Below, piece after piece: positions 8,309 through 41,753 of a stretch of 47,800 bases of DNA. The notes beneath the pieces are model-generated. The model was not told the DNA's origin. It saw only the letters and a program-made list of their open reading frames with translations, and ran no database searches. Every line of letters starts with the position of its first letter. Position 1 is the first letter of the stretch. The position numbers were made by a program, and so were the translations under genes. The DNA comes from Candidatus Woesebacteria bacterium (GTDB lineage Bacteria > Patescibacteriota > Microgenomatia > UBA12405). The DNA lies in NCBI GenBank assembly GCA_035402805.1, contig DAONDY010000002.1:1-47800 (forward strand). Direction: 5' to 3'.

Positions 8309-9100
8309 ATGTTAAAGAAATTTTTAATATTAATTTTGGCCTCAATTTTTTTGAGTAGCTGTAGTTTGAGTCCTAAAAAATCAGGACTAGAAATAATGAG
8401 TTTTCCGATCGCTAAGGTTTATATAAACAATAAGGAAATGGGGTCAACTCCTTATAAAAATATGAATTTAAAACCGGGAGAGAATGAAATAAAATTAGTT
8501 TCTCAAAATAAGGAATGGAAAAGAAAAGTAGATTTACAAAATAATATTAATACAGTGATAGATTGGCAATTTGGTGATGATTCTAGCCAGGACAGCGGAT
8601 ATATCCTCTATCTAGAAAAAACGGGTGATAAAAAGGCTTCCCTTTTGGTAAATACCAATCCAGATAAATCGATAATAAATATTGATGATGAAGTTAAAGG
8701 AACATCACCAATAAAAGTTAGTGAAATCAATGAAGGAGATAGACGATTGAAGGTTTCATTCCCGGGATACAAAGATGTAAATGTATTTATGAAAGCAATT
8801 AACGGATATCAATTAGTAGTAGATATAAAATTGGCAATTGAAAAAAATAATATTGAACAAATTATTAATTCTGAAAGTGAAATTAATAGTTCAAATGAAA
8901 TAAAAAAAATAATCGTAAAGGAAACAGAGACCGGATGGTTAAAGGTTAGAGAAGCAAGTTCCAGCTCGAGCAAAGAAATTACTAGAATTAAACCTGGCGA
9001 ACAATATACTTTATTAGAAGAAGGAACTGATTGGTACAAAATCGATTTGGGAAATGACAAGAATGGCTGGATATCGGCTAATTATGCTTCGAAAAATTAA
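8309..9100 (+). CDS. lipoprotein with PEGA repeats and C-terminal SH3b-like domain
   Basis: Lipobox-like LSSCS after a signal peptide. It has two PEGA-like segments (TPYKNMNLKPGENEIKL; SPIKVSEINEGDRRLKVSFPGYKD) and a C-terminal GWLKVREASS...WYKI...GWISANY resembling bacterial SH3. Confidence 0.55.
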   Translation: MLKKFLILILASIFLSSCSLSPKKSGLEIMSFPIAKVYINNKEMGSTPYKNMNLKPGENEIKLVSQNKEWKRKVDLQNNINTVIDWQFGDDSSQDSGYILYLEKTGDKKASLLVNTNPDKSIINIDDEVKGTSPIKVSEINEGDRRLKVSFPGYKDVNVFMKAINGYQLVVDIKLAIEKNNIEQIINSESEINSSNEIKKIIVKETETGWLKVREASSSSSKEITRIKPGEQYTLLEEGTDWYKIDLGNDKNGWISANYASKN

Positions 9101-10136
9101 TGAAAATACCAAAAATTAAGAAAGAACAGGCTAAAAAGAAATAGAGTTTTTGCTGACTATTAAGAAAAAGCGAGACGATACCAAGAATTAAACTTATTGC
9201 CCAATAAAAAATAGCAATCGAACGACGCGACCAGCCGGCTTTAAGAAGCTGGTGGTGAAAATGTTTTCCGTCGCCTAAATAAATAGGCTTTTTATTGATA
9301 ATCCTTCGAATAATAGTGTAAACGGCATCAAGCATGGGGATAAAGAGAAGGAAAATAAGAGTTGCTAGTTTAGCACCAGAAAGAATGGCTAACACAGCCA
9401 ACAAAAACCCTCCGAGGCTTTTACCGCTATAGCCCGGCATAATTGACTGCGGAAAAAAATTAAAGGGAAGAAAACCAAGATATGAACCACACACGGCACC
9501 GGCTAAAATGATGACTGGCCATTGGGTGATATCAGTAGAATAACGAAAAGCTAAAAGACCAATAAAAAAAGCAGAGATGGAAACAAAACCAGGAAGTTGA
9601 CCATCAACGCCAGTAGCCCAACCAACGATATTCATGCACCAGACTATCCAAATGACGGCCAAAATATCTGGAATTACCCAAATACTGTGCTGACCTAAAA
9701 AATTAAAATTTATTTTTAAAAAAGAAAGGTCAATAACTCCGTTACTTAAAGGATTGGAAATAAAGGCAATTCCAATACCGGAAGCAACAATTACCAAGGC
9801 CACAATAATATTGAAAAATAGCCTTACTTTAGGACTAATGTCTTTAATATCATCAAATAGACCAACAATTAAAGTTATTAAACTGGCAAGAAGAATACCA
9901 ATTAAATGTTTATCTATTGGCAAAAAAATGATTGAGGTGATTAAAACTGAGACAAAAATAGGAATTCCCCCACCCCGAGGAACAGAAGACAAAGCAGTGG
10001 CGTTATTGGTTTTCTTTTGTTTGTCTAATGGATTTTCAATCCAGTTTTTTTTAATAAAAAAATTTCTAATTAAGGGAGTAAGGATAAAGGATATCCCGGC
10101 TGAAATTAAAATGGCTAGAATAAAGGAAAATGACAT
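9078..10136 (-). CDS. glycosyltransferase family 4 (MraY/WecA-like polyprenyl-phosphate sugar-1-phosphate transferase)
   Basis: 352 aa, about 10 TM segments, with a FDDIKDISPK motif and a length and topology typical of WecA/MraY-family transferases. Confidence 0.8.
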   Translation of the reverse strand: MSFSFILAILISAGISFILTPLIRNFFIKKNWIENPLDKQKKTNNATALSSVPRGGGIPIFVSVLITSIIFLPIDKHLIGILLASLITLIVGLFDDIKDISPKVRLFFNIIVALVIVASGIGIAFISNPLSNGVIDLSFLKINFNFLGQHSIWVIPDILAVIWIVWCMNIVGWATGVDGQLPGFVSISAFFIGLLAFRYSTDITQWPVIILAGAVCGSYLGFLPFNFFPQSIMPGYSGKSLGGFLLAVLAILSGAKLATLIFLLFIPMLDAVYTIIRRIINKKPIYLGDGKHFHHQLLKAGWSRRSIAIFYWAISLILGIVSLFLNSQQKLYFFLACSFLIFGIFINFSKHN

Positions 10137-25354: not shown

Positions 25355-26305
25355 ATGATAGTAAGACAAAAAATTTTTGATACTTATTGGAAATTTGCTG
25401 CCGAAAGACAGAAAATTTTTTTTAAAAAACTTAAAGGAAGCTCAGCCCCCTACTCAGATGATGAAATTTTAAATAATTATAAATTTTGCAATGCTTATCG
25501 AGCCAGTGATAGAGTATCTCAATTTTTGATAAAGGAGGTAATTTATAAAGGAAACTTTAGCAAATTAGATACCCTCTTTAGAATATTTTTGTTTAGGTTA
25601 TTAAATAAAAATGAAAGTTGGATAAGTTTAGAAAGAAAAGTTGGGGAAATTTCTATTAAGAATTTTGGCTTTGAAAAATATGAAAAGGCAATAGAAGATA
25701 TTATTAAAGAAAATGGAGTTTTTTATGGAAATGCTTTTATTCTCTGTGCTAATAAAGTTTATGGTTATGATGAAAAATACAAAAACCATTTGGCTTTATT
25801 AAGTGAAATTTTTATAAAAAGTAATAAAGGTTTAGATTTATTAGAATCAAAAAGCCTAAAAGAATTATTCGAAAAATTAATTAAAATGCCGTTGATTGGG
25901 AAATTTATGGCATATCAAATTGCCATTGATTTTAATTATTCTGAAGTTTTTGATTTTGATGAAGATGATTTTACTTGTGCCGGACCAGGAGCTATCAGAG
26001 GAATTAATAAATGTTTTAAAACCTTAGGAAATAAAAGTTATGAAGAAATAATTTTATGGATGGTGAAAAATCAGGACAAAGAATTTAAAAGATTAAAAAT
26101 CAATTTTAAAGATCTATTTGGAAGAAAACTACATGCAATTGATTGTCAAAATTTATTTTGTGAAACTGATAAATATTGCCGGGTTAAGTTTCCAAAATTA
26201 AAAAGTAATAGAAGTAAAATTAAGTCTGTTTACAGGGAAAATAAGGGAAAAATCGAATACTTTTACCCACCAAAATGGGGTATAAATAAAAAAGTTAGAT
26301 CTTGA
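25355..26305 (+). CDS. putative DNA base hypermodification protein (aGPT-Pplase / 5-hmdU DNA kinase helical-domain family)
   Basis: 316 aa. The N-terminal pattern ERQKIFFKK...PYSDDEILNNYKFCNAYRASDRVSQFLI, plus FMAYQIAIDFNY, GPGAIRG and IDCQNLFCETDKYCR, matches my memory of proteins annotated in this family. The call is based on recollection only, not a search. Confidence 0.45.
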   Translation: MIVRQKIFDTYWKFAAERQKIFFKKLKGSSAPYSDDEILNNYKFCNAYRASDRVSQFLIKEVIYKGNFSKLDTLFRIFLFRLLNKNESWISLERKVGEISIKNFGFEKYEKAIEDIIKENGVFYGNAFILCANKVYGYDEKYKNHLALLSEIFIKSNKGLDLLESKSLKELFEKLIKMPLIGKFMAYQIAIDFNYSEVFDFDEDDFTCAGPGAIRGINKCFKTLGNKSYEEIILWMVKNQDKEFKRLKINFKDLFGRKLHAIDCQNLFCETDKYCRVKFPKLKSNRSKIKSVYRENKGKIEYFYPPKWGINKKVRS

Positions 26306-34255: not shown

Positions 34256-34283
34256 GGGTCTGGAATTTATATGTCCTTATAAC
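34256..34283 (+). repeat. 28-nt direct repeat, copy A (GGGTCTGGAATTTATATGTCCTTATAAC)
   Basis: Matches 35877-35904 at 24 of 28 positions in the same orientation. It lies 47 nt after the patatin stop, at the left edge of the accessory region. Confidence 0.8.
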
Positions 34284-34419: not shown

Positions 34420-35565
34420 ATGAAAATACTTACTAATATCTAGACTTCACAATTAGGAGGGATTGGCCAGACTTTTGAAAATTTGATAAATTTTCTTCAA
34501 CAAAAAAATTTATCAAAAATCCAAATTGTTGGTATTGATGCCACTAAAGAACCAAATTCATCAAATAAAGGTACTTCCTATGAAGTCATTGATAATTCTA
34601 TTTTAAGAGTTATTCCAATAGACGTTGATTGTCCACATTTCAGCGATGTAATTAAAAGCGTTTCTACGGTAAACGAAATTAAAGAGACGTATTCAAAACT
34701 AATTGATAACTACATTAAAATAATTAGACAAGAAAAGCCAGATTTAATTCTTTTGAATGGTACTTACTTTGTTCCTTGGTCCCTTTTCCAAGCCGGAAGT
34801 ATAGAGAAAATACCCATGGTTCTTCACTATCATGGAATTTTAACTAAAGAAACTTCTCAATATGACCCTTCTGTAAGAGATTTAATTCACAAAATGGAAA
34901 CAACTTTTGATAATGACAGTCTCCTTTATATTTTCCCATCAAAACTAGCTCAAAAAACTGTTGAAGAAGAAGTTTTCGGACATCAAATTTCTCGATCTGT
35001 CGTTATACCTAACCCAATTCCTAACTATTTTTTTGAAACAAAAGGCGTTAACTCTCAAAAAGAAATAGCTTTTGTTGGTCGTTGGTCTAATATAAAAAAT
35101 CCTAAATTTATAAAAAAATTTATAAAATATAATCAAAATAAGTTAAGTGACTATCGAATTAATATTGTTTCTGATAAAGAAAAGGCTTCTAAAGACCTTT
35201 TAGATTACGCAAATTCCGTTAAATTTTACTCTCCAATGGAAAATAAAAAATTAGCCAATTTCTATGGCAAAATGGGTATAGTAATAAGCCCTTCTTTCTT
35301 TGAAACTTACGGTAACGTTGCTCAAGAATCAATCGCCAGCGGAACACCGGCTTTAGTAGGTCCCAATATGGGTGTTTCCGAAATTTTTAGGCAAGTTGGA
35401 CTTTCCGATTTTATTGTTGATTTCAGTTCGACCAAAAATGTTTATTATAAAATCAAAAAATTTAGTGGTCGACCAATTGACAAAAAAGTTAAAGATATGC
35501 TCAAATATAACCTTACCCCAAATATTATCAGCGAAAAACTAATTAAAGCTTTAAAATCGGCTTAA
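34420..35565 (+). pseudogene. GT4-family (group 1) glycosyltransferase interrupted by an in-frame TAG at codon 8
   Basis: AGGAGG (34409-34414) is followed 5 nt later by ATG 34420, encoding MKILTNI-TAG(34441-34443)-TSQLGGIGQTFENL..., in frame with the 360-aa ORF listed from the TTG at 34483. The C-terminal half has the GT4 signature FFETYGNVAQESIASGTPAL. The N-terminal MKIL...GG(I/V)G segment is normally part of the fold. Confidence 0.6.
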
Positions 35566-35615
35566 TACAATCCATTGCCAAGGAGATTGTGGATCGAAAA
35601 AATTTACAAAATCTA

Positions 35616-35861
35616 TTAATTTAATAAATCTTCACTATAAAGATTAGGTGGCCAGTTCAATTTTTTGATTTGTCCTGATTCAGTAGCAATTTTTGCGGCC
35701 ATAATTCGATCAACAAAATCACCCGAATCAGTTACAAAACCTTGTTCGCCTTTGATTGGTAATTTCAAACCATAATTTTCCACCATGTCTTTAATAATTA
35801 AATCGTGTCTCTTCCCGGTATAAATTTTATTTTCTTGTCTAATAGCTGCTTCTTTAATCAT
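35616..35861 (-). CDS. hypothetical 81-aa protein
   Basis: Clean ORF MIKEAAIRQENKIYTGKRHDLIIKDMVENYG...QGFVTDSGDFVDRIMAAKIATESGQI. The pattern AIR..(x)..TG.RH..II....G......QGF.T..G.FVDR..A..IA...GQI resembles small proteins I associate with phage/mobile contexts (recollection only). No SD. Confidence 0.55.
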   Translation of the reverse strand: MIKEAAIRQENKIYTGKRHDLIIKDMVENYGLKLPIKGEQGFVTDSGDFVDRIMAAKIATESGQIKKLNWPPNLYSEDLLN

Positions 35862-35876
35862 TTTAGCGGAGCATTG

Positions 35877-35904
35877 GGGTCTGGAACCTTTCTGTCCTTA
35901 TAAC
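35877..35904 (+). repeat. 28-nt direct repeat, copy B (GGGTCTGGAACCTTTCTGTCCTTATAAC)
   Basis: Matches 34256-34283 at 24/28. It lies 16-43 nt upstream of the 81-aa gene start (minus strand) and is followed by two more TGTCC cores (35907-35911, 35920-35924). Confidence 0.8.
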
Positions 35905-35984
35905 ACTGTCCCCAACCTCTGTCCTATTCTACCAGTCTTTTGTGCCTAAATGAGACAAATGAGACAGTATAAAAAAGGAGTGTC

Positions 35985-37640
35985 TCAAAATGATGATATG
36001 TTTTGAATTTGAGGGTGACAGGTACTACTACAAAAATTACATCTAGGGCAAATGAGTTTGCCACAAACATCACACGTCTTATCTTTCCCAAATACTAGAG
36101 GAATGTTTGCGCAAGGTTTGCTTCCAGACAGCGTAGTTACCCAGCCACCACAATATGCGATTAAAGTCGTCCACTGAGGATCTGTTTGATTAATTTTCCC
36201 CCGCAAGATATTAAAACCTTGAAGTTCAAACACATGAAAATTATTTAATTCTGTTGTTTTTTTACTCCAAAGAATTGAAAGACATTCGATTAGAGAATTA
36301 ATAGTTTTTAGAGGGTCATACAAAAATAAAGGTCTAGTCAAATCTGTTGTAGGATAAACTAATATCCGATAATCATTAGGACTATAAGGTCCGTTAGATT
36401 TGCTAGATAACTGTATTAAAAAATCTTCCAACATTGACAAAAATACGGTAGCGAGTGTTAGACCAATTTTTGTTTTTCTTAATTGGAGTTTCTTGACAAA
36501 TTCTTTTTGGCTGATTGAGAGAAGTAATTGAGGATCGAAATTATATTCTAAACCTGAAACAATATAAGCAGGGAGTGGATTGATTTTTGCTTCATAACAT
36601 AATCTCCAGTCAGGATAAGGCATCTTCTTTAACTTAACAACTAAGTCATCATAAGATTTATATAAATTAGATGAATATTTAAACAACCATGGTGGCAAAA
36701 AATTATTGTTATTACTACTTGCGTTTTGAAAATATATTTTTAATGGACCATGTTCAAATTCAGAGATGAGATTGGCAATGTACACTTTTGTTGTTGTCCC
36801 TAAATATAATACGGACCTGTTTCCAGATTGCATTTCCGAAAGCGGAAGCCAAGGAGAAAGAACTCCAGCGATGGTGACTGATTCTAAATTACGATTTTCT
36901 TTAAAGCGAGTAATACAATGATTGACATATCTTTCATGATTATATTGAGATTGTCTTGCGTTTTTAATATCGACTGGTTGTCCTTCTACTAATAGGTCGT
37001 AACTTTTCCAATTATTATTATTCGGGTTTATCTGTGAGATAGAAACATCCTCAACGGTATATCCTTCTTGTCTATAAAATTTTGACATGGCAGTTTCTGC
37101 CAATCTAGCAGACAATAATCGCCTTTCGTTCCCCTCACTAGTATTATGTTCGTCTGCTATCCACAGTTTTACAAGTTTTAAATCATCTGAAGTTGGACAA
37201 GGAGAGGTGATGTCAACTTTTTTTGCTATCGAATCATTTAGAACATCTAAAACTAAATCAATATAATCTTTAACTTTTAATAATCGTTTACGAGCCGCTT
37301 CGAGTTCTAAATATTGTTTTAATTTTATTTCTTCGTCTTCTTTTCTTTTTTGTTCTAACTGTTTAAGACGATCAATTTCTTTTTCTTTTTCCTCTTTTAA
37401 TATTTTAGTTTCCCACTCATTTATATCTTTTGGATAACATAGTTTTGTGAAATCTTCGATAAAAAAATCATGGGATATATTTCCAGTACTCTTGCTCCTA
37501 GGTGAAGTGACTTTAATAGTTTTATCGACTATATCAACGACGGTAAGATTTCCTAATCCAGGATGTTTTATTGTTTTACCAACTAACGACCTGCTTGATA
37601 AACACCACTTTGCTAAAAGCTGATTATAAACATCATTCAT
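35985..37640 (-). CDS. orphan 551-aa protein: N-terminal small beta-barrel-like segment, coiled coil, PD-(D/E)xK-like nuclease motif, C-terminal Cys-rich zinc-ribbon-like tail
   Basis: Long uninterrupted ORF with a TGA stop. Residues ~21-45 are GKTIKHPGLGNLTVVDIVDKTIKV. Residues ~78-125 are a charged heptad-like EEKEKEIDRLKQLEQKRKEDEEIKLKQYLELEAARKR. Residues 178-227 are ARLAETAMSKFYRQEGY...WKSYD(215)LLVEGQPVD(224)IK(226)N. The tail is C523-x2-C-x4-C-x2-C-x2-C-x3-C541. The ~290 residues between fit no family I recognise. Confidence 0.7.
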   Translation of the reverse strand: MNDVYNQLLAKWCLSSRSLVGKTIKHPGLGNLTVVDIVDKTIKVTSPRSKSTGNISHDFFIEDFTKLCYPKDINEWETKILKEEKEKEIDRLKQLEQKRKEDEEIKLKQYLELEAARKRLLKVKDYIDLVLDVLNDSIAKKVDITSPCPTSDDLKLVKLWIADEHNTSEGNERRLLSARLAETAMSKFYRQEGYTVEDVSISQINPNNNNWKSYDLLVEGQPVDIKNARQSQYNHERYVNHCITRFKENRNLESVTIAGVLSPWLPLSEMQSGNRSVLYLGTTTKVYIANLISEFEHGPLKIYFQNASSNNNNFLPPWLFKYSSNLYKSYDDLVVKLKKMPYPDWRLCYEAKINPLPAYIVSGLEYNFDPQLLLSISQKEFVKKLQLRKTKIGLTLATVFLSMLEDFLIQLSSKSNGPYSPNDYRILVYPTTDLTRPLFLYDPLKTINSLIECLSILWSKKTTELNNFHVFELQGFNILRGKINQTDPQWTTLIAYCGGWVTTLSGSKPCANIPLVFGKDKTCDVCGKLICPRCNFCSSTCHPQIQNISSF

Positions 37641-37659
37641 AAAAAATTTCTAAAAAAAA

Positions 37660-37679
37660 TTGTTACTCATTGATAACAA
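37660..37679 (-). promoter_or_regulatory. inverted repeat TTGTTA-N8-TAACAA just upstream of the 551-aa gene (possible operator)
   Basis: TTGTTACTCATTGATAACAA lies 20-39 nt upstream of the ATG at 37640. It has perfect 6-bp arms. Confidence 0.3.
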
Positions 37680-37686
37680 CATATCC

Positions 37687-37867
37687 CTCAAATGGATCTA
37701 TATTTTTGCCTATTTTTGTCCTTCGACGACAACATATTGTAGTAAAATCCTACATTTTGTCCTCTGAACCATAATACGTCATCGTTATTATCCTCTTAAC
37801 GTGCCTTGAGAGGATAATAATGATGTCATAGGTTGATATTAGCCCCTTGGTGGAAGTAGATACTTCT
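37687..37867. repeat. structured repeat element, copy R1
   Basis: Shares near-identical blocks with 41518-41753 in the same order and orientation: TCTATATTTT[T/A]GCCTATTTT, GAACCA[T/C]AATACGTCATC, AACGTGCCTTGAG[A/T]GGATAATAATGATG and CCTTGG[T/C]GG. It contains a 17-bp hairpin (37780-37796 pairs with 37809-37825; loop TAACGTGCCTTG). Confidence 0.75.
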
Positions 37868-37877
37868 GGATTCCTGT

Positions 37878-38206
37878 TTATGCAAACCATTTATTTGCTA
37901 AGTTCTGTCTACTCTTTTCTTTATAATTCACTTCTTGAGATAGTCTTAATATTCCTTTTGTTGGATCATAATGATCACTTAACTTACCTCTTGAAAGTTC
38001 AATTGGTATATTTTGCAAACCATGTTGATCTAATAATCTTCTTGCAACTTGAACTCCTGTATATCCTCTATTTGTTGGTACTCTCAAGTATTTGTTAAAG
38101 TTTGATTGTACCTTACTTTGAGCATAAATCGTTAAAATACTGCCGGAATTAAAATAATCATGGTTGGATCAAATCTAAAATAACTAAAAGGATAAAACAT
38201 TGTCAT
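37878..38206 (-). pseudogene. pseudogene: N-terminal third of a neutral zinc metallopeptidase (Zn_peptidase_2-type), frameshifted and 3'-truncated
   Basis: AAGGAG SD followed by ATG 38206 gives MTMFYPFSYFRFDPTMIILIPAVF. A 1-nt frameshift occurs in a T-run near 38132-38139. The sequence then continues TIYAQSKVQSNFNKYLRVPTNRGYTGVQVARRLLDQHGLQNIPIELSRGKLSDHYDPTKGILRLSQEV. Homology stops before the expected HExxH region at about 37915. Confidence 0.7.
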
Positions 38207-38226
38207 CACTCCTTGATTTAAAGTTT

Positions 38227-39591
38227 TTAGTAATCCAGTTCCCTTAATACGCTTTTAAACTGAATAGTAAATAGTATACTGGTTACTGTAACAGCAATAA
38301 TATCAGCTATTGGCTCTGCTAAAAATACTGCATTTACCTTATTTTGCAAAAATAAAGGTAATATATATATTAGTGGGATTAAAAGGAGTATTTTACGCAA
38401 AATAGCTAAAAATACAGATGTCTTTGCATTTCCCAGTGCAATAAAAGTTTGTTGACAACTGATTTGAATTCCAAATAGCAAAGAAGCAGCCATATAAATT
38501 CTCATTGTTTTAATAGAAATATTAATCAACTCAGCATCTTTAGTAAAAATTCTAGCAAATACTTGTGGAGATAACATTGCAATTGCCCACAATCCTATTG
38601 AATAAATTAGAGATAACTTAAGTAGTAACAAAAATGTTTCCTTAACCCGCTTACTATGACGTGCTCCATAGTTAAAACTAATAATTGGTGTAGCACCTTG
38701 GGTAAGTCCCATTAAGGGAAGCATAGAAAATTGCATAACACTTGATAGAATCGTCATTGACCCAACTGCTAAATCTCCACCGTATTTGAGTAAAGATGTA
38801 TTAAATGATATAGCTAAAATACTTTCTGTTGATTGCATAATAAATGGTGATAATCCAAGGGCAATACAAGGTAATAACACCTTAAAATCTATCCTTAAAT
38901 ATTTTTTCTTGATTTTTAATAAGGTCTTATCTCCTGTAAGAAACTTCATAACCCATAATGCAGAAACTCCTTGTGATATTATAGTTGCTAAAGCTGCACC
39001 TTTTACTCCCATATTAAATACAAAAATGAAAATAGGGTCTAGTATAATGTTTAATATTGCCCCAACTAGTACTGTAAGCATACTTGTTTTGGCAAATCCT
39101 TGTGCAGTAATAAATGCATTTAGACCTAAAGCGAGTTGTACAAATAGTGTTCCATAAGCATAGATATTTAAATAATCCAATGCATAGTTTATAGTATTTT
39201 CACTGGCACCAAATGTCATTAACATTTTCTCTCCAAATATAAGAACCACAGCTGTTAATGCAATTGAAATAAACACTAATGCACTTGTACAGTTTCCAAG
39301 TATTTTCTCAGCAGTATCCTTATCTCCTTTTCCCATCATAATTGAAGAACGTGGCGCACCACCCATACTAACTAAAGCAGCAAATGCTGATATAACCATA
39401 ATGATTGGCATGGTCACACCAACTGCTGTTAAGGCAGTAGCCCCTACATTAGGAATATGTCCAATATACATTCTATCTACCATATTGTACAAAAGGTTAA
39501 TAATCTGTGCTGTAATTGCAGGAATAGCCATACTAAAAAGTAACTTACTTATATTTTTTGTCCCTAATTCATTTTGTTGTTTATTTTCCAT
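38227..39591 (-). CDS. MATE family efflux transporter
   Basis: About 454 aa and 12 TM segments, with the typical N-terminal ...LLFSMAIPAITAQIINLLYNMVDRMYIGH. I chose the start at ATG 39591 (MENKQQ...), which is preceded by AGGGAG. The ORF is open to 39627 but would then overlap marR. Confidence 0.85.
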   Translation of the reverse strand: MENKQQNELGTKNISKLLFSMAIPAITAQIINLLYNMVDRMYIGHIPNVGATALTAVGVTMPIIMVISAFAALVSMGGAPRSSIMMGKGDKDTAEKILGNCTSALVFISIALTAVVLIFGEKMLMTFGASENTINYALDYLNIYAYGTLFVQLALGLNAFITAQGFAKTSMLTVLVGAILNIILDPIFIFVFNMGVKGAALATIISQGVSALWVMKFLTGDKTLLKIKKKYLRIDFKVLLPCIALGLSPFIMQSTESILAISFNTSLLKYGGDLAVGSMTILSSVMQFSMLPLMGLTQGATPIISFNYGARHSKRVKETFLLLLKLSLIYSIGLWAIAMLSPQVFARIFTKDAELINISIKTMRIYMAASLLFGIQISCQQTFIALGNAKTSVFLAILRKILLLIPLIYILPLFLQNKVNAVFLAEPIADIIAVTVTSILFTIQFKSVLRELDY

Positions 39592-40106: not shown

Positions 40107-40561
40107 GTTAACATATTTATTTCCCTTTTTCAATACAAATTCCAGTAGTACCATGCCTATCATTAACTAAAAACCTTTATAACTTTGTATTTTACATAAA
40201 ACTTAACATAAAGATTTTTCTTAACTTTTATTTTTGGCATAAAAAAAGCGAGTTTTCTAGGTTCATTGTTTACCTAAAGATCGCTTCTTTGTTTTAATTA
40301 TTAAATTTTAGATGTATATACTATTTTCCCTATTTCTTATCTTTTACAACTTTCATGTTTGAAATATCTATACTTACTGATTAGAAATCATTGTATCCCT
40401 TTTATATTTTCTTTCTCCTCTCCTATCTAATCTAAAAGAAAGGAAAACAAATAATATAATCACTACTTTACAGAAGGTATTCTAAAAACAAGGTAATCTT
40501 AGATAAAAAACCGATGATTATCTTTTTATATACGGAGACTTTACCTTCCTGAACTTTATCA

Positions 40562-40762
40562 TTATATATAAGAATAATCTTTATCTATAATTAAACTCTT
40601 ATTTAAATCTACTTGAACATTTTCCTTTAACTGTTCTGTAAATTCCCGACTTGAAATGACTACCATAGACTCACTGTTTATATAGCTACTTCTTGCATCA
40701 AAATTAAAAGATCCTATCACACTTATAGTATCATCGAATATATACGTTTTGCTGTGGATTGA
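40562..40762 (-). pseudogene. gene fragment: C-terminal HKD motif region of a phospholipase D / cardiolipin synthase-like protein
   Basis: The minus frame reads SIHSKTYIFDDTISVIGSFNFDARSSYINSESMVVISSREFTEQLKENVQVDLNKSLIIDKDYSYI-stop. It carries HxK(x)4D...GSxN, but a stop codon sits immediately upstream (40763-40765), so only about 66 codons remain. Confidence 0.6.
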
Positions 40763-40867
40763 TTATTTCAATGTATTCAAATCTTTATTATATCTTTATA
40801 GTTCTCTACTTTGCAAATAGTTTTTAAACTTTTCTGCTCATATTGCATTGAATTGTCTTAAAAGTAG

Positions 40868-41334
40868 CTATTGTATTCCACCTGAACGGACAGCTTTTAT
40901 GAATTCTGGCGGATTAATAAAATGAAGCCCTTTATCGTTAATCCAGCTAGTTTCAGAAAGGAGATTCTTCATAGTGTCTGCGTCTAATTCAGGATTTACC
41001 TGCCAACCAAGTGCCAGTACACCACATATGGAACAGCCCAACTTTGGCCTCCAACTCCATCATAACGATAGCAATAATCACCTTCAACAAGTCCTTGGGC
41101 TAATGTTCGAAAAGATGCTGGTGCATAAATCATATTTTTTGCACTTTCATGTGTAAAGTCCATATCATACCTTGCTGGGTACCCAGGGTTACACTTAGAT
41201 ACATTATTTGGATCAGATATATCATAATATGATGAAAACACAAAATCAGTATGCTCATTTGTAGGACAGTCAATAACCATTATCCCATCTTCTTCGGCTT
41301 CAAAAACAGCATTCTCCCACAATTCTCCATTTTT
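40868..41334 (-). pseudogene. gene fragment: C-terminal part of a serine-peptidase-like protein, 5'-truncated and frameshifted
   Basis: The frame is open only from about 41334 (no plausible N-terminus). It reads ...YDGVGGQSWAVPYV, then shifts frame near 41000-41010 and continues LALGWQVNPELDADTMKNLLSETSWINDKGLHFINPPEFIKAVRSGGIQ-TAG. The G-x-S-x-A-x-P-x-V pattern resembles the subtilase Ser motif, but the family call is tentative. Confidence 0.4.
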
Positions 41335-41517
41335 AAACCAACATCTTTAAGTTTTACAAACCAAGACATTAAAAAGCACCTTAATAATTTCATTCTAAAT
41401 CAATATAAATTATTTAGGGAATCTTAGCTTCACACTTATCTACTGATGTTCATCTATAGTATCTTATTCAACCATTCATTTATCAACCTGATTTTCCTAC
41501 TTTTGTCCTTGCCATCA

Positions 41518-41753
41518 CTCAAATTATCCAATGTCATCTATATTTTAGCCTATTTTCAAGGGTCAAAAAACGGTGTTCTTCTACCGTTTTTTGACCCTTA
41601 TTTCGTCTTCAAACCACTACATGTTGTGGTCAACTTCTATTTCTTGCTTTCCGAACCACAATACGTCATCAGAATTATACTCTCAACGTGCCTTGAGTGG
41701 ATAATAATGATGACGCTTCAAGCTGGTTATTCCTTGGCGGCAGGATACCTTTC
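41518..41753. repeat. structured repeat element, copy R2 (with inserted 14-bp hairpin)
   Basis: Same conserved blocks as R1. The long imperfect hairpin pairs 41664-41686 with 41693-41716. Relative to R1 it carries an extra GGGTCAAAAAACGG/CCGTTTTTTGACCC hairpin. Confidence 0.75.
41570..41607. terminator. 14-bp perfect hairpin with internal A6/T6 runs (bidirectional terminator-like)
   Basis: GGGTCAAAAAACGG (41570-41583), a 10-nt loop, then CCGTTTTTTGACCC (41594-41607). Confidence 0.45.

Follow-up and report, generated by a model that had tools for sequence, protein, structure and literature searches.

What does a gene do that matches none of the curated protein families, yet sits intact in an otherwise streamlined genome of the Candidate Phyla Radiation (CPR)? 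The question is raised by an open reading frame (ORF) of 551 amino acids (aa) in a Candidatus Woesebacteria bacterium (assembly GCA_035402805.1), located within the first 47,800 nucleotides of contig DAONDY010000002.1; this whole stretch, hereafter the window, is chromosomal, as it carries the start of a 16S rRNA gene and five tRNAs. Its GroEL, by a cluster at 90% identity or more, points to a Candidatus Shapirobacteria genome of the CPR. Searched as a single sequence, the protein had no match in Pfam, NCBIfam, PADLOC or PHROGs, nor among the sequences of the PDB. An earlier account made from the letters alone, the sequence-only reading, had described it as an orphan with a PD-(D/E)xK-like core and a cysteine tail, and had proposed it as a defence or mobile-element nuclease. 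The follow-up presented here supports its placement as a modular PD-(D/E)xK nuclease of an uncurated family, recently acquired by this chromosome, and the reading that we favour, with a probability of roughly 0.5, is that of a stand-alone, single-gene conflict nuclease, anti-phage or directed against mobile elements, whose family exchanges its N-terminal readers. The gene and its parts are as follows.

35985..37640, minus strand: the 551-aa gene (ATG start, intact), a modular PD-(D/E)xK nuclease of an uncurated family, from the ORF list, homologs, the AlphaFold2 (AF2) model and the ratio of non-synonymous to synonymous substitution (dN/dS)
37473..37580, minus strand: residues 21-56, a small SH3/Tudor-like beta-barrel at the N-terminal 'reader' position, which varies across the family, from the model and alignment
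37278..37433, minus strand: residues 70-121, one extended helix rich in charged residues (either an ER/K-type spacer or a weak coiled coil), from the AF2 model
36711..37199, minus strand: residues 148-310, the predicted PD-(D/E)xK nuclease domain with E182, D198, D215, D224 and K226, from conservation and the domain model
36261..36683, minus strand: residues 320-460, a conserved, mostly helical domain, from the AF2 model (helices 324-458) and conservation
36018..36233, minus strand: residues 470-541, a beta-rich, putatively metal-binding Cys8 module, from cysteine conservation and the beta-hairpins modelled at 470-517

The full-length AF2 model (predicted local distance difference test, pLDDT, 88.1; predicted template-modelling score, pTM, 0.79) gave weak matches to the PDB, the best at E=0.2, and these were led by influenza PA-N and NaeI, both of which are PD-(D/E)xK nucleases. 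The domain at 148-310 was also modelled in isolation (pLDDT 90.4, pTM 0.85), and secondary structure assignment with DSSP revealed the alpha-beta-beta-beta-alpha-beta order of the nuclease core in both models (helix 169-191, strands 216-218, 221-230 and 256-262, helix 267-272 and strand 276-283). Within residues 169-303, E182 is carried by the first helix, D215 by strand 1 and the D224-x-K226 motif by strand 2, and all four residues are invariant in 127 aligned sequences. When the isolated domain was compared with the PDB using Foldseek, all of the top 50 matches were PD-(D/E)xK-fold nucleases, among them I-Ssp6803I, subunits of the tRNA-splicing endonuclease (TSEN), EcoRV, the N-domain of Eco15I, PA-N and Hjc; the best was I-Ssp6803I (2ost; E=0.01, probability 0.94). 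Against predicted viral structures, the best matches were phage proteins, 160-190 aa in length and uncharacterised (E=1.5e-6), and a T4-type endonuclease IV was matched weakly. Because the order of the fold and the motif are both present, and because the top PDB fold matches all belong to it, membership of the PD-(D/E)xK superfamily is supported by the alignments and models, with no specific family within it fitting; the Pfam PDDEXK models did not match the protein at E values up to 1. E182, D215, D224 and K226 thus form the putative catalytic set, and D198 and R179 are likewise invariant. The E...D...(D/E)xK arrangement and the core fold that the sequence-only reading placed at residues ~170-260 were thereby upheld, the former being invariant in alignments of 31, 66 and 127 members.

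The designation as an orphan did not survive. A word-indexed search returned 54 homologs, and an exhaustive search returned 788 representative clusters (at 50% identity) with E values up to 1e-3, 451 of them with E values up to 1e-30. Those bearing names at source are all 'hypothetical' except for one named for its cold-shock domain (CSD). A family profile had no match among PDB sequences, and a search of the literature found no description of the family; the family and its architecture thus appear undescribed, while the enzyme superfamily and the functional theme are both well known. Its hosts in the records include CPR bacteria, metagenome-assembled genomes of Candidatus Poribacteria, Latescibacterota and Chloroflexota, and a Thermoplasmatota archaeon; cyanobacteria, sponge symbionts and proteobacterial plasmids are also given, and the plasmid-borne copies are those of Synechocystis, Variovorax, Roseomonas, Sinorhizobium and Microvirga. 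Throughout, the matched part corresponds to residues ~150-545 of the query and is invariably C-terminal in the homolog. In the alignments that were built, of 31, 66 (the long members) and 127 sequences, the invariant residues are W160, A178, R179, E182, D198, D215, D224, K226, G281, W318, D442, C497 and P514.

What precedes this constant part is exchanged among relatives. The CSD is the commonest N-terminal domain, being found in 12 of the 66 long members, while WD40, TPR and LRR N-termini occur in single members each, and core-only members of ~380-420 aa exist that lack an N-terminal domain. WD40 proteins encoded just downstream at two loci (L015 and L016) were considered as tandem paralogs with another reader, a relationship that the comparison did not bear out. 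The N-terminus of one relative, P0036, matches PF21196 (PcrA_UvrD_tudor) with E=3.6e-7 and 30.4 bits against a cut-off of 23.9; those of P0025, P0026 and P0028 score below the cut-off, and P0025 has an additional, weak and sub-threshold match to CarD_TRCF_RID. The barrel of the window protein shares alignment columns with the Tudor domain of P0036 and contains an H-x-x-L-G-x-L-x-V motif. It is built in the AF2 model from four strands (23-26, 30-38, 41-45 and 52-56), and its SH3/Tudor fold matches, obtained with the full-length model, are weak. Beyond it, the helix at 70-121 consists of 58% D, E, K and R, with 13 opposite-charge pairs at i/i+4 spacing and no clear heptad register, and it may serve as an ER/K-type single-helix spacer instead of a coiled coil. 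The highly charged long helix of the sequence-only reading was therefore recovered, whereas its naming as a coiled coil stays unproven.

Judged from the alignments, the conserved functional unit of the family is its C-terminal ~400 residues, comprising the predicted nuclease domain, the helical domain and the Cys8 module. The helical domain contains the invariant D442, is immediately preceded by the invariant W318 and has no detectable relatives, with no Pfam or PDB-sequence match in any member. The Cys8 set is composed of C497, C510, C523, C526, C531, C534, C537 and C541. All eight are at least 90% conserved in the 127-sequence alignment; in that of 66 sequences seven are invariant and C526 is at least 90% conserved. 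The last four are spaced C-x2-C-x2-C-x3-C, which is ferredoxin-like, and the module is modelled in beta-hairpins in the style of a zinc ribbon. Conservation and model together suggest a putative metal-binding module, for either Zn or an Fe-S cluster. The six cysteines noted earlier in the last 30 residues are thus real but incomplete, as the conserved set numbers eight and includes C497 and C510. The earlier remark that residues ~230-520 resemble nothing familiar also stood, since neither the curated families nor the PDB sequences offered a match; the C-terminal ~230 residues (helical domain plus Cys8 module) found no match in any sequence search, and no listed fold match can be assigned to them as the fold tables give no aligned ranges.

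Comparison with known systems places the protein near several of them and inside none. It shares with the PD-(D/E)xK superfamily at large (I-Ssp6803I, EcoRV, the Eco15I N-domain, Hjc and PA-N) the order of strands and helices and a motif on the expected elements, but it adds ~230 conserved residues without detectable relatives after the domain. The Cas4, AddB and RecB family nucleases hold Fe-S clusters through cysteine ligands, and the combination of a PD-(D/E)xK domain with conserved cysteines is a likeness to them. The cysteines at 497-541, however, are ~200 residues downstream of the nuclease domain, in a separate module of beta-hairpins that does not clamp it, and there was no Cas4/PDDEXK_1-type Pfam match at E values up to 1; membership of the Cas4/RecB type was accordingly rejected. 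The barrel resembles the Tudor domain of PcrA/UvrD and the RID of CarD/TRCF, both RNA-polymerase-binding barrels, by way of the matches of P0036 and P0025 and the alignment columns shared by the window protein; in this family, unlike PcrA/UvrD, it is N-terminal and joined to a nuclease, not a helicase. The END nucleases, in which a type IIS-like nuclease is fused to an inactive endonuclease III sensor, are alike in concept, that of a stand-alone defence nuclease which lacks a methyltransferase and combines cleavage with a separate sensing module (PMC12191111). The variable module of the present family is, by contrast, N-terminal and of the CSD, Tudor, WD40, TPR or LRR type, and END membership was rejected because no HhH-GPD/EndoIII Pfam match was found in the window protein or the 66 long members, and neither EndoIII nor MutY appeared among the listed fold matches. 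McrC and CnuC, the nucleases of the McrBC and CoCoNuT type IV systems, overlap with it in having a PD-(D/E)xK nuclease, a zinc-ribbon-like Cys module, long helices and cold-shock-like domains (PMC11090510). The order of domains in the 551-aa protein differs from theirs, and with no DUF2357, the N-terminal domain of McrC, in the protein and no McrB-type (AAA_5-type) GTPase in the annotated neighbourhoods examined, it was not placed within these systems.

How the gene reached this chromosome could be read from two further copies of it. The exact 551-aa protein is encoded on 15 contigs, and the six places listed represent six different samples; most of these reproduce the context of the window, namely MarR, MATE, a Zn_peptidase_2 fragment, the 551-aa gene, an 81-aa gene, GT4 and patatin. 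A contig designated L026 (Logan SRR31966185, 1-9978) is identical to the window over 1761 nt (100% by blastn, from 37706 to 35946) in an otherwise unrelated context, and a second, L006, has the context and upstream boundary of L026 and 96.5% identity to the window segment. Three features define the transfer.

35946..37706, minus strand: the shared segment, a transferred unit that holds only the nuclease gene, at 100% (L026) and 96.5% (L006) identity by blastn; its downstream end is a minimum, as the L026 and L006 contigs both end 35-39 nt past the stop codon
37663..37706, minus strand: a relic of the donor-type upstream gene, its last 14 codons and stop (NIDPFEGYVVINE and stop), from the L026 ORF at 9091-9978
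37696..37706, no strand: an 11-nt microhomology (ATCTATATTTT) at the upstream junction, from a repeat search and three-way alignment

In both L026 and L006, the nuclease gene closes a compact series of genes on one strand, which in L026 encodes proteins of 75, 218, 616 and 564 aa, a DUF2130 protein, a DUF3142 protein, proteins of 716 and 295 aa, and then the nuclease. The 295-aa upstream gene terminates within the shared segment, such that the window retains 14 of its codons while the gene itself is absent. The two contigs are colinear over 5.6 kb with upstream genes that are 70-93% identical, and a block of 96-98% identity between them begins ~640 nt ahead of the window junction. From the donor-gene relic in the window, and from the context shared by L006 and L026, the sequence comparison leads to the conclusion that the L026-type locus is the older home and that the chromosome recently gained a fragment of ~1.76 kb. 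The microhomology ATCTATATTTT is common to the donor-type sequence and to a chromosomal repeat element, R1, and a junction of this kind points to illegitimate recombination, not precise homing. Both L026 and the window have a GC fraction of 0.32, which suggests a related donor. Between the window gene and its 96.5%-identical copy in L006, dN/dS is 0.25 and the 26 substitutions all spare the invariant sites; this measure, to which the donor lineage contributes most, indicates purifying selection on the gene.

The L026 locus was also considered as a known defence system, and this was rejected since the genes just upstream of the nuclease gene, those for the 716-aa, 295-aa and DUF3142 proteins, had no match in PADLOC or PHROGs. 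Only the 564-aa protein had one, to the helix-turn-helix part of MzaA and PglW in PADLOC (E=1e-10 and 1e-7); it also has RNA polymerase alpha-CTD and sigma70-r4 matches. Upstream of the series, the opposite strand carries a DNA methylase gene. With mostly unfamiliar genes beside a DNA methylase, the locus may represent an undescribed methylation-associated system.

The neighbourhoods of relatives were compared across 28 loci. An all-vs-all comparison of neighbours uncovered no conserved partner family, recurring neighbours being confined to related genomes, and no small antitoxin gene is conserved in the adjacent position across these loci, as would be expected of the toxin of a toxin-antitoxin (TA) pair. 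Genes of conflict systems are nevertheless frequent. Individual relatives have close by them type I HsdR, GAPS4 and PIN_12; Mrr_cat and AspBHI_N; PhdYeFM and HicB-like antitoxins with DUF4926 and DUF6883; a PIN protein; Schlafen/AlbA_2-HATPase_c_4; or a DDE transposase with a faint MazE match. DDE transposases recur at other loci, and a Y1 transposase, IS630 and a GIY-YIG gene also occur beside relatives. On the Sinorhizobium plasmid, a pair of genes for an ATP-binding protein and a UvrD helicase near the family member is Gabija-like by annotation only. In Synechocystis sp. B12, the plasmid copy (CP101712.1; locus L036, 6956-8334) is split into two ORFs annotated as 'hypothetical protein' in a TA-rich region with VapC, DUF433/DUF5615 PIN-like, DUF3883 and DUF1156 proteins, and is probably decaying. 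Defence, TA and transposase neighbours are thus frequent but not universal, and the association with defence is suggestive.

The conflict-nuclease reading is preferred because it accounts for a fixed effector with swapped readers, the patchy spread of the family, its presence on plasmids, its defence, TA and insertion sequence neighbours, the decay of copies and the recent transfer. In this scheme, an exchangeable N-terminal reader, which here would be the Tudor/SH3-like barrel mounted on the long charged helix and in relatives a cold-shock domain, WD40, TPR or LRR module, or none, would recognise a cue in nucleic acid or protein and thereby position or license the metal-dependent nuclease domain, which would then cut nucleic acid. 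The window copy itself is a recent arrival, a piece of ~1.76 kb that came from a locus of the L026 type and was joined to the chromosome at the 11-nt microhomology beside the repeat. The earlier proposal of a defence or mobile-element nuclease therefore fares well in respect of mobility, which the recent transfer fits, and the homologs do not share a syntenic setting of housekeeping genes; enzymatic activity and a role in defence are what we infer.

Several observations weigh against this reading. None of the defence families of PADLOC-DB v2 matches the 551-aa protein at E values up to 1, and searches of IMG/VR viral contigs and GenBank phage records turned up no member of the family, which leaves the family with no direct link to phages and also led to the rejection of the protein as a phage gene. 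At several loci, most notably those of Poribacteria and Latescibacterota, the flanks consist of ordinary metabolic genes, and some loci are syntenic between related genomes; the ordinary neighbours seen across the family include alanyl-tRNA synthetase (AlaRS), a thiamine pyrophosphate enzyme, BatA, a HAD hydrolase and an rpoA/ribosomal cluster. The PDB fold matches of the nuclease domain are weak (best E=0.01, TM 0.23-0.42, identity 9-21%). The N-terminus of the window protein has no Pfam Tudor match and reaches no Pfam threshold; of the UvrD-type barrel proposed earlier, the small four-stranded barrel at 23-56 stands as a model, and its assignment to the Tudor family is tentative. Finally, a promoter scan found promoter-like sites at the level of chance and no identifiable promoter for the window copy.

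Should the protein prove to be a defence nuclease, a widespread single-gene system would be added to the anti-phage repertoire, and the swapping of readers on a fixed nuclease core would constitute a natural experiment on how sensing is coupled to cutting. The helical-plus-Cys8 module of ~230 residues may be a fold not seen before, with a part in regulation or in binding nucleic acid. To the study of CPR bacteria, the locus offers a very recent gene gain traced to its junction sequence. Specialists would not be greatly surprised by a modular PD-(D/E)xK nuclease in a mobile or defence setting. A bolder version, which we regard as a long shot, would make the family a new class of immune nuclease, in which interchangeable readers gate the PD-(D/E)xK domain through the helical-plus-Cys8, possibly Fe-S, module; the Tudor would address RNA polymerase, the CSD single-stranded RNA or DNA and the WD40, TPR and LRR modules proteins, and in the Tudor-bearing subfamily of the window protein the enzyme would travel with RNA polymerase and be triggered once transcription is taken over by a phage.

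Of the rival explanations, the one that survives best, while still being improbable, is a selfish nuclease of the homing type that cuts a specific chromosomal site and whose gene copies itself into the break. A unit of 1761 nt that holds only the nuclease gene and is 100% identical in two contexts is what such an element might leave, the best PDB fold match, I-Ssp6803I, is itself a PD-(D/E)xK homing endonuclease, and relatives adjoin the GIY-YIG gene and transposases. The relic of the donor upstream gene and the 11-nt microhomology, however, give the junction the look of illegitimate recombination, not of a precise event; the gene is intergenic, with neither an intron or intein setting nor a conserved target gene; a protein of 551 aa with WD40, TPR, LRR or CSD readers among its relatives is unlike known homing enzymes; and the match to I-Ssp6803I, an enzyme of ~150 aa, is weak (E=0.01-0.06, TM 0.33-0.40).

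Behind homing in probability comes the possibility that in this genome the gene is a silent passenger, a promoter-less fragment of the DUF3142, 716-aa, 295-aa and 551-aa locus that depends on the genes it once adjoined, or on being transcribed together with them. Its position at the end of a packed series in L026 and L006, the transfer of only that last gene, the chance-level promoter matches and the pseudogene fragments nearby, such as that of Zn_peptidase_2, would all be in keeping with this. It is countered by the intact ORF and the recovery of the exact protein on multiple contigs and from separate samples, by the fact that the gene stands alone elsewhere in the family, with the nearest subfamily members lacking L026-type neighbours, and by the dN/dS of 0.25, although the latter is mostly a donor-lineage signal. 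Least probable is a cellular factor for nucleic-acid processing linked to transcription, with a Tudor-like barrel docking on RNA polymerase in the manner of PcrA/UvrD or CarD/TRCF and a nuclease processing stalled complexes, R-loops or RNA, since the PF21196 match of P0036 above threshold, the sub-threshold PF21196 and CarD_TRCF_RID matches of P0025, the CSD (a binder of single-stranded nucleic acid) as commonest reader, the RNA-cutting PA-N and TSEN among the fold matches and the housekeeping flanks at some loci, including rpoA/ribosomal genes and AlaRS, are set against a patchy distribution with no fixed synteny, presence on plasmids, recent horizontal transfer, decaying copies such as that of the Synechocystis plasmid, and WD40, TPR and LRR readers ill-suited to one housekeeping role.

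The surroundings of the gene in the window contain two further features.

37709..37830, no strand: repeat element R1, which abuts the junction and holds a 25-nt inverted repeat, from a repeat search and alignment
35616..35861, minus strand: an 81-aa phage-like neighbour (T4_Y16D / phrog_839), from phrog_839 (E=8e-14) and a precomputed match to PF26092 (T4_Y16D)

A second copy of R1 lies in direct orientation at 41596-41712 (76% identity over 117 nt), or within 41492-41712 when the first is taken as 37696-37830, and between the two copies are the Zn_peptidase_2 fragment, the genes for MATE and MarR and a run of short ORF fragments. R1 may be a miniature inverted-repeat transposable element (MITE)-like or recombination-prone element; Rfam gave no credible match in 35500-38300, a range that covers the first R1 copy and the gene flanks only. 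The second copy holds an extra palindromic insert of ~44 nt. On the other side of the nuclease gene, a 28-nt direct repeat at 34256-34283 and 35877-35904 (86% identical) flanks exactly a glycosyltransferase (GT) gene at 34483-35565, whose Pfam match to 'GT4-conflict' is weak, and the 81-aa gene, a sign that this pair, too, may have been inserted together as one block. The 81-aa gene lies outside the documented shared DNA, the segment being known only down to 35946. The position of the nuclease gene between the 28-nt repeat and R1, and the phage-like character of the 81-aa neighbour, had both been noted in the sequence-only reading and were confirmed. The inverted repeat TTGTTA-N8-TAACAA that it also reported is present at 37660-37679, but it was picked post hoc and has no independent support as an operator; at the donor-type locus the preceding gene's stop codon falls within it. 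A terminator scan around the nuclease gene gave sites at the level of chance.

Beside R1, the Zn_peptidase_2 (PF04298) gene at 37878-38198 (minus strand) is a pseudogene, consisting of its first ~22 codons followed by a stop. The remnant includes a 69-aa ORF that corresponds to profile positions 28-84 of 218; no ORF continuing it was noticed in the adjoining stretches that were read, though no formal search was made. The pseudogene indicates a rearrangement or deletion beside the inserted nuclease gene. Further along, between MarR and the second R1, short ORFs of 52-108 aa on the minus strand of 40500-41400 resemble fragments of decayed genes. Elsewhere in the window, near tRNA-Cys and GroEL, a 316-aa protein encoded at 25355-26305 (plus strand) has a precomputed match to PF18723 (HMUDK_hel). 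HMUDK_hel is the helical domain of the 5-hydroxymethyluracil DNA kinase of phage thymidine-hypermodification pathways, and it is unexpected in a CPR chromosome.

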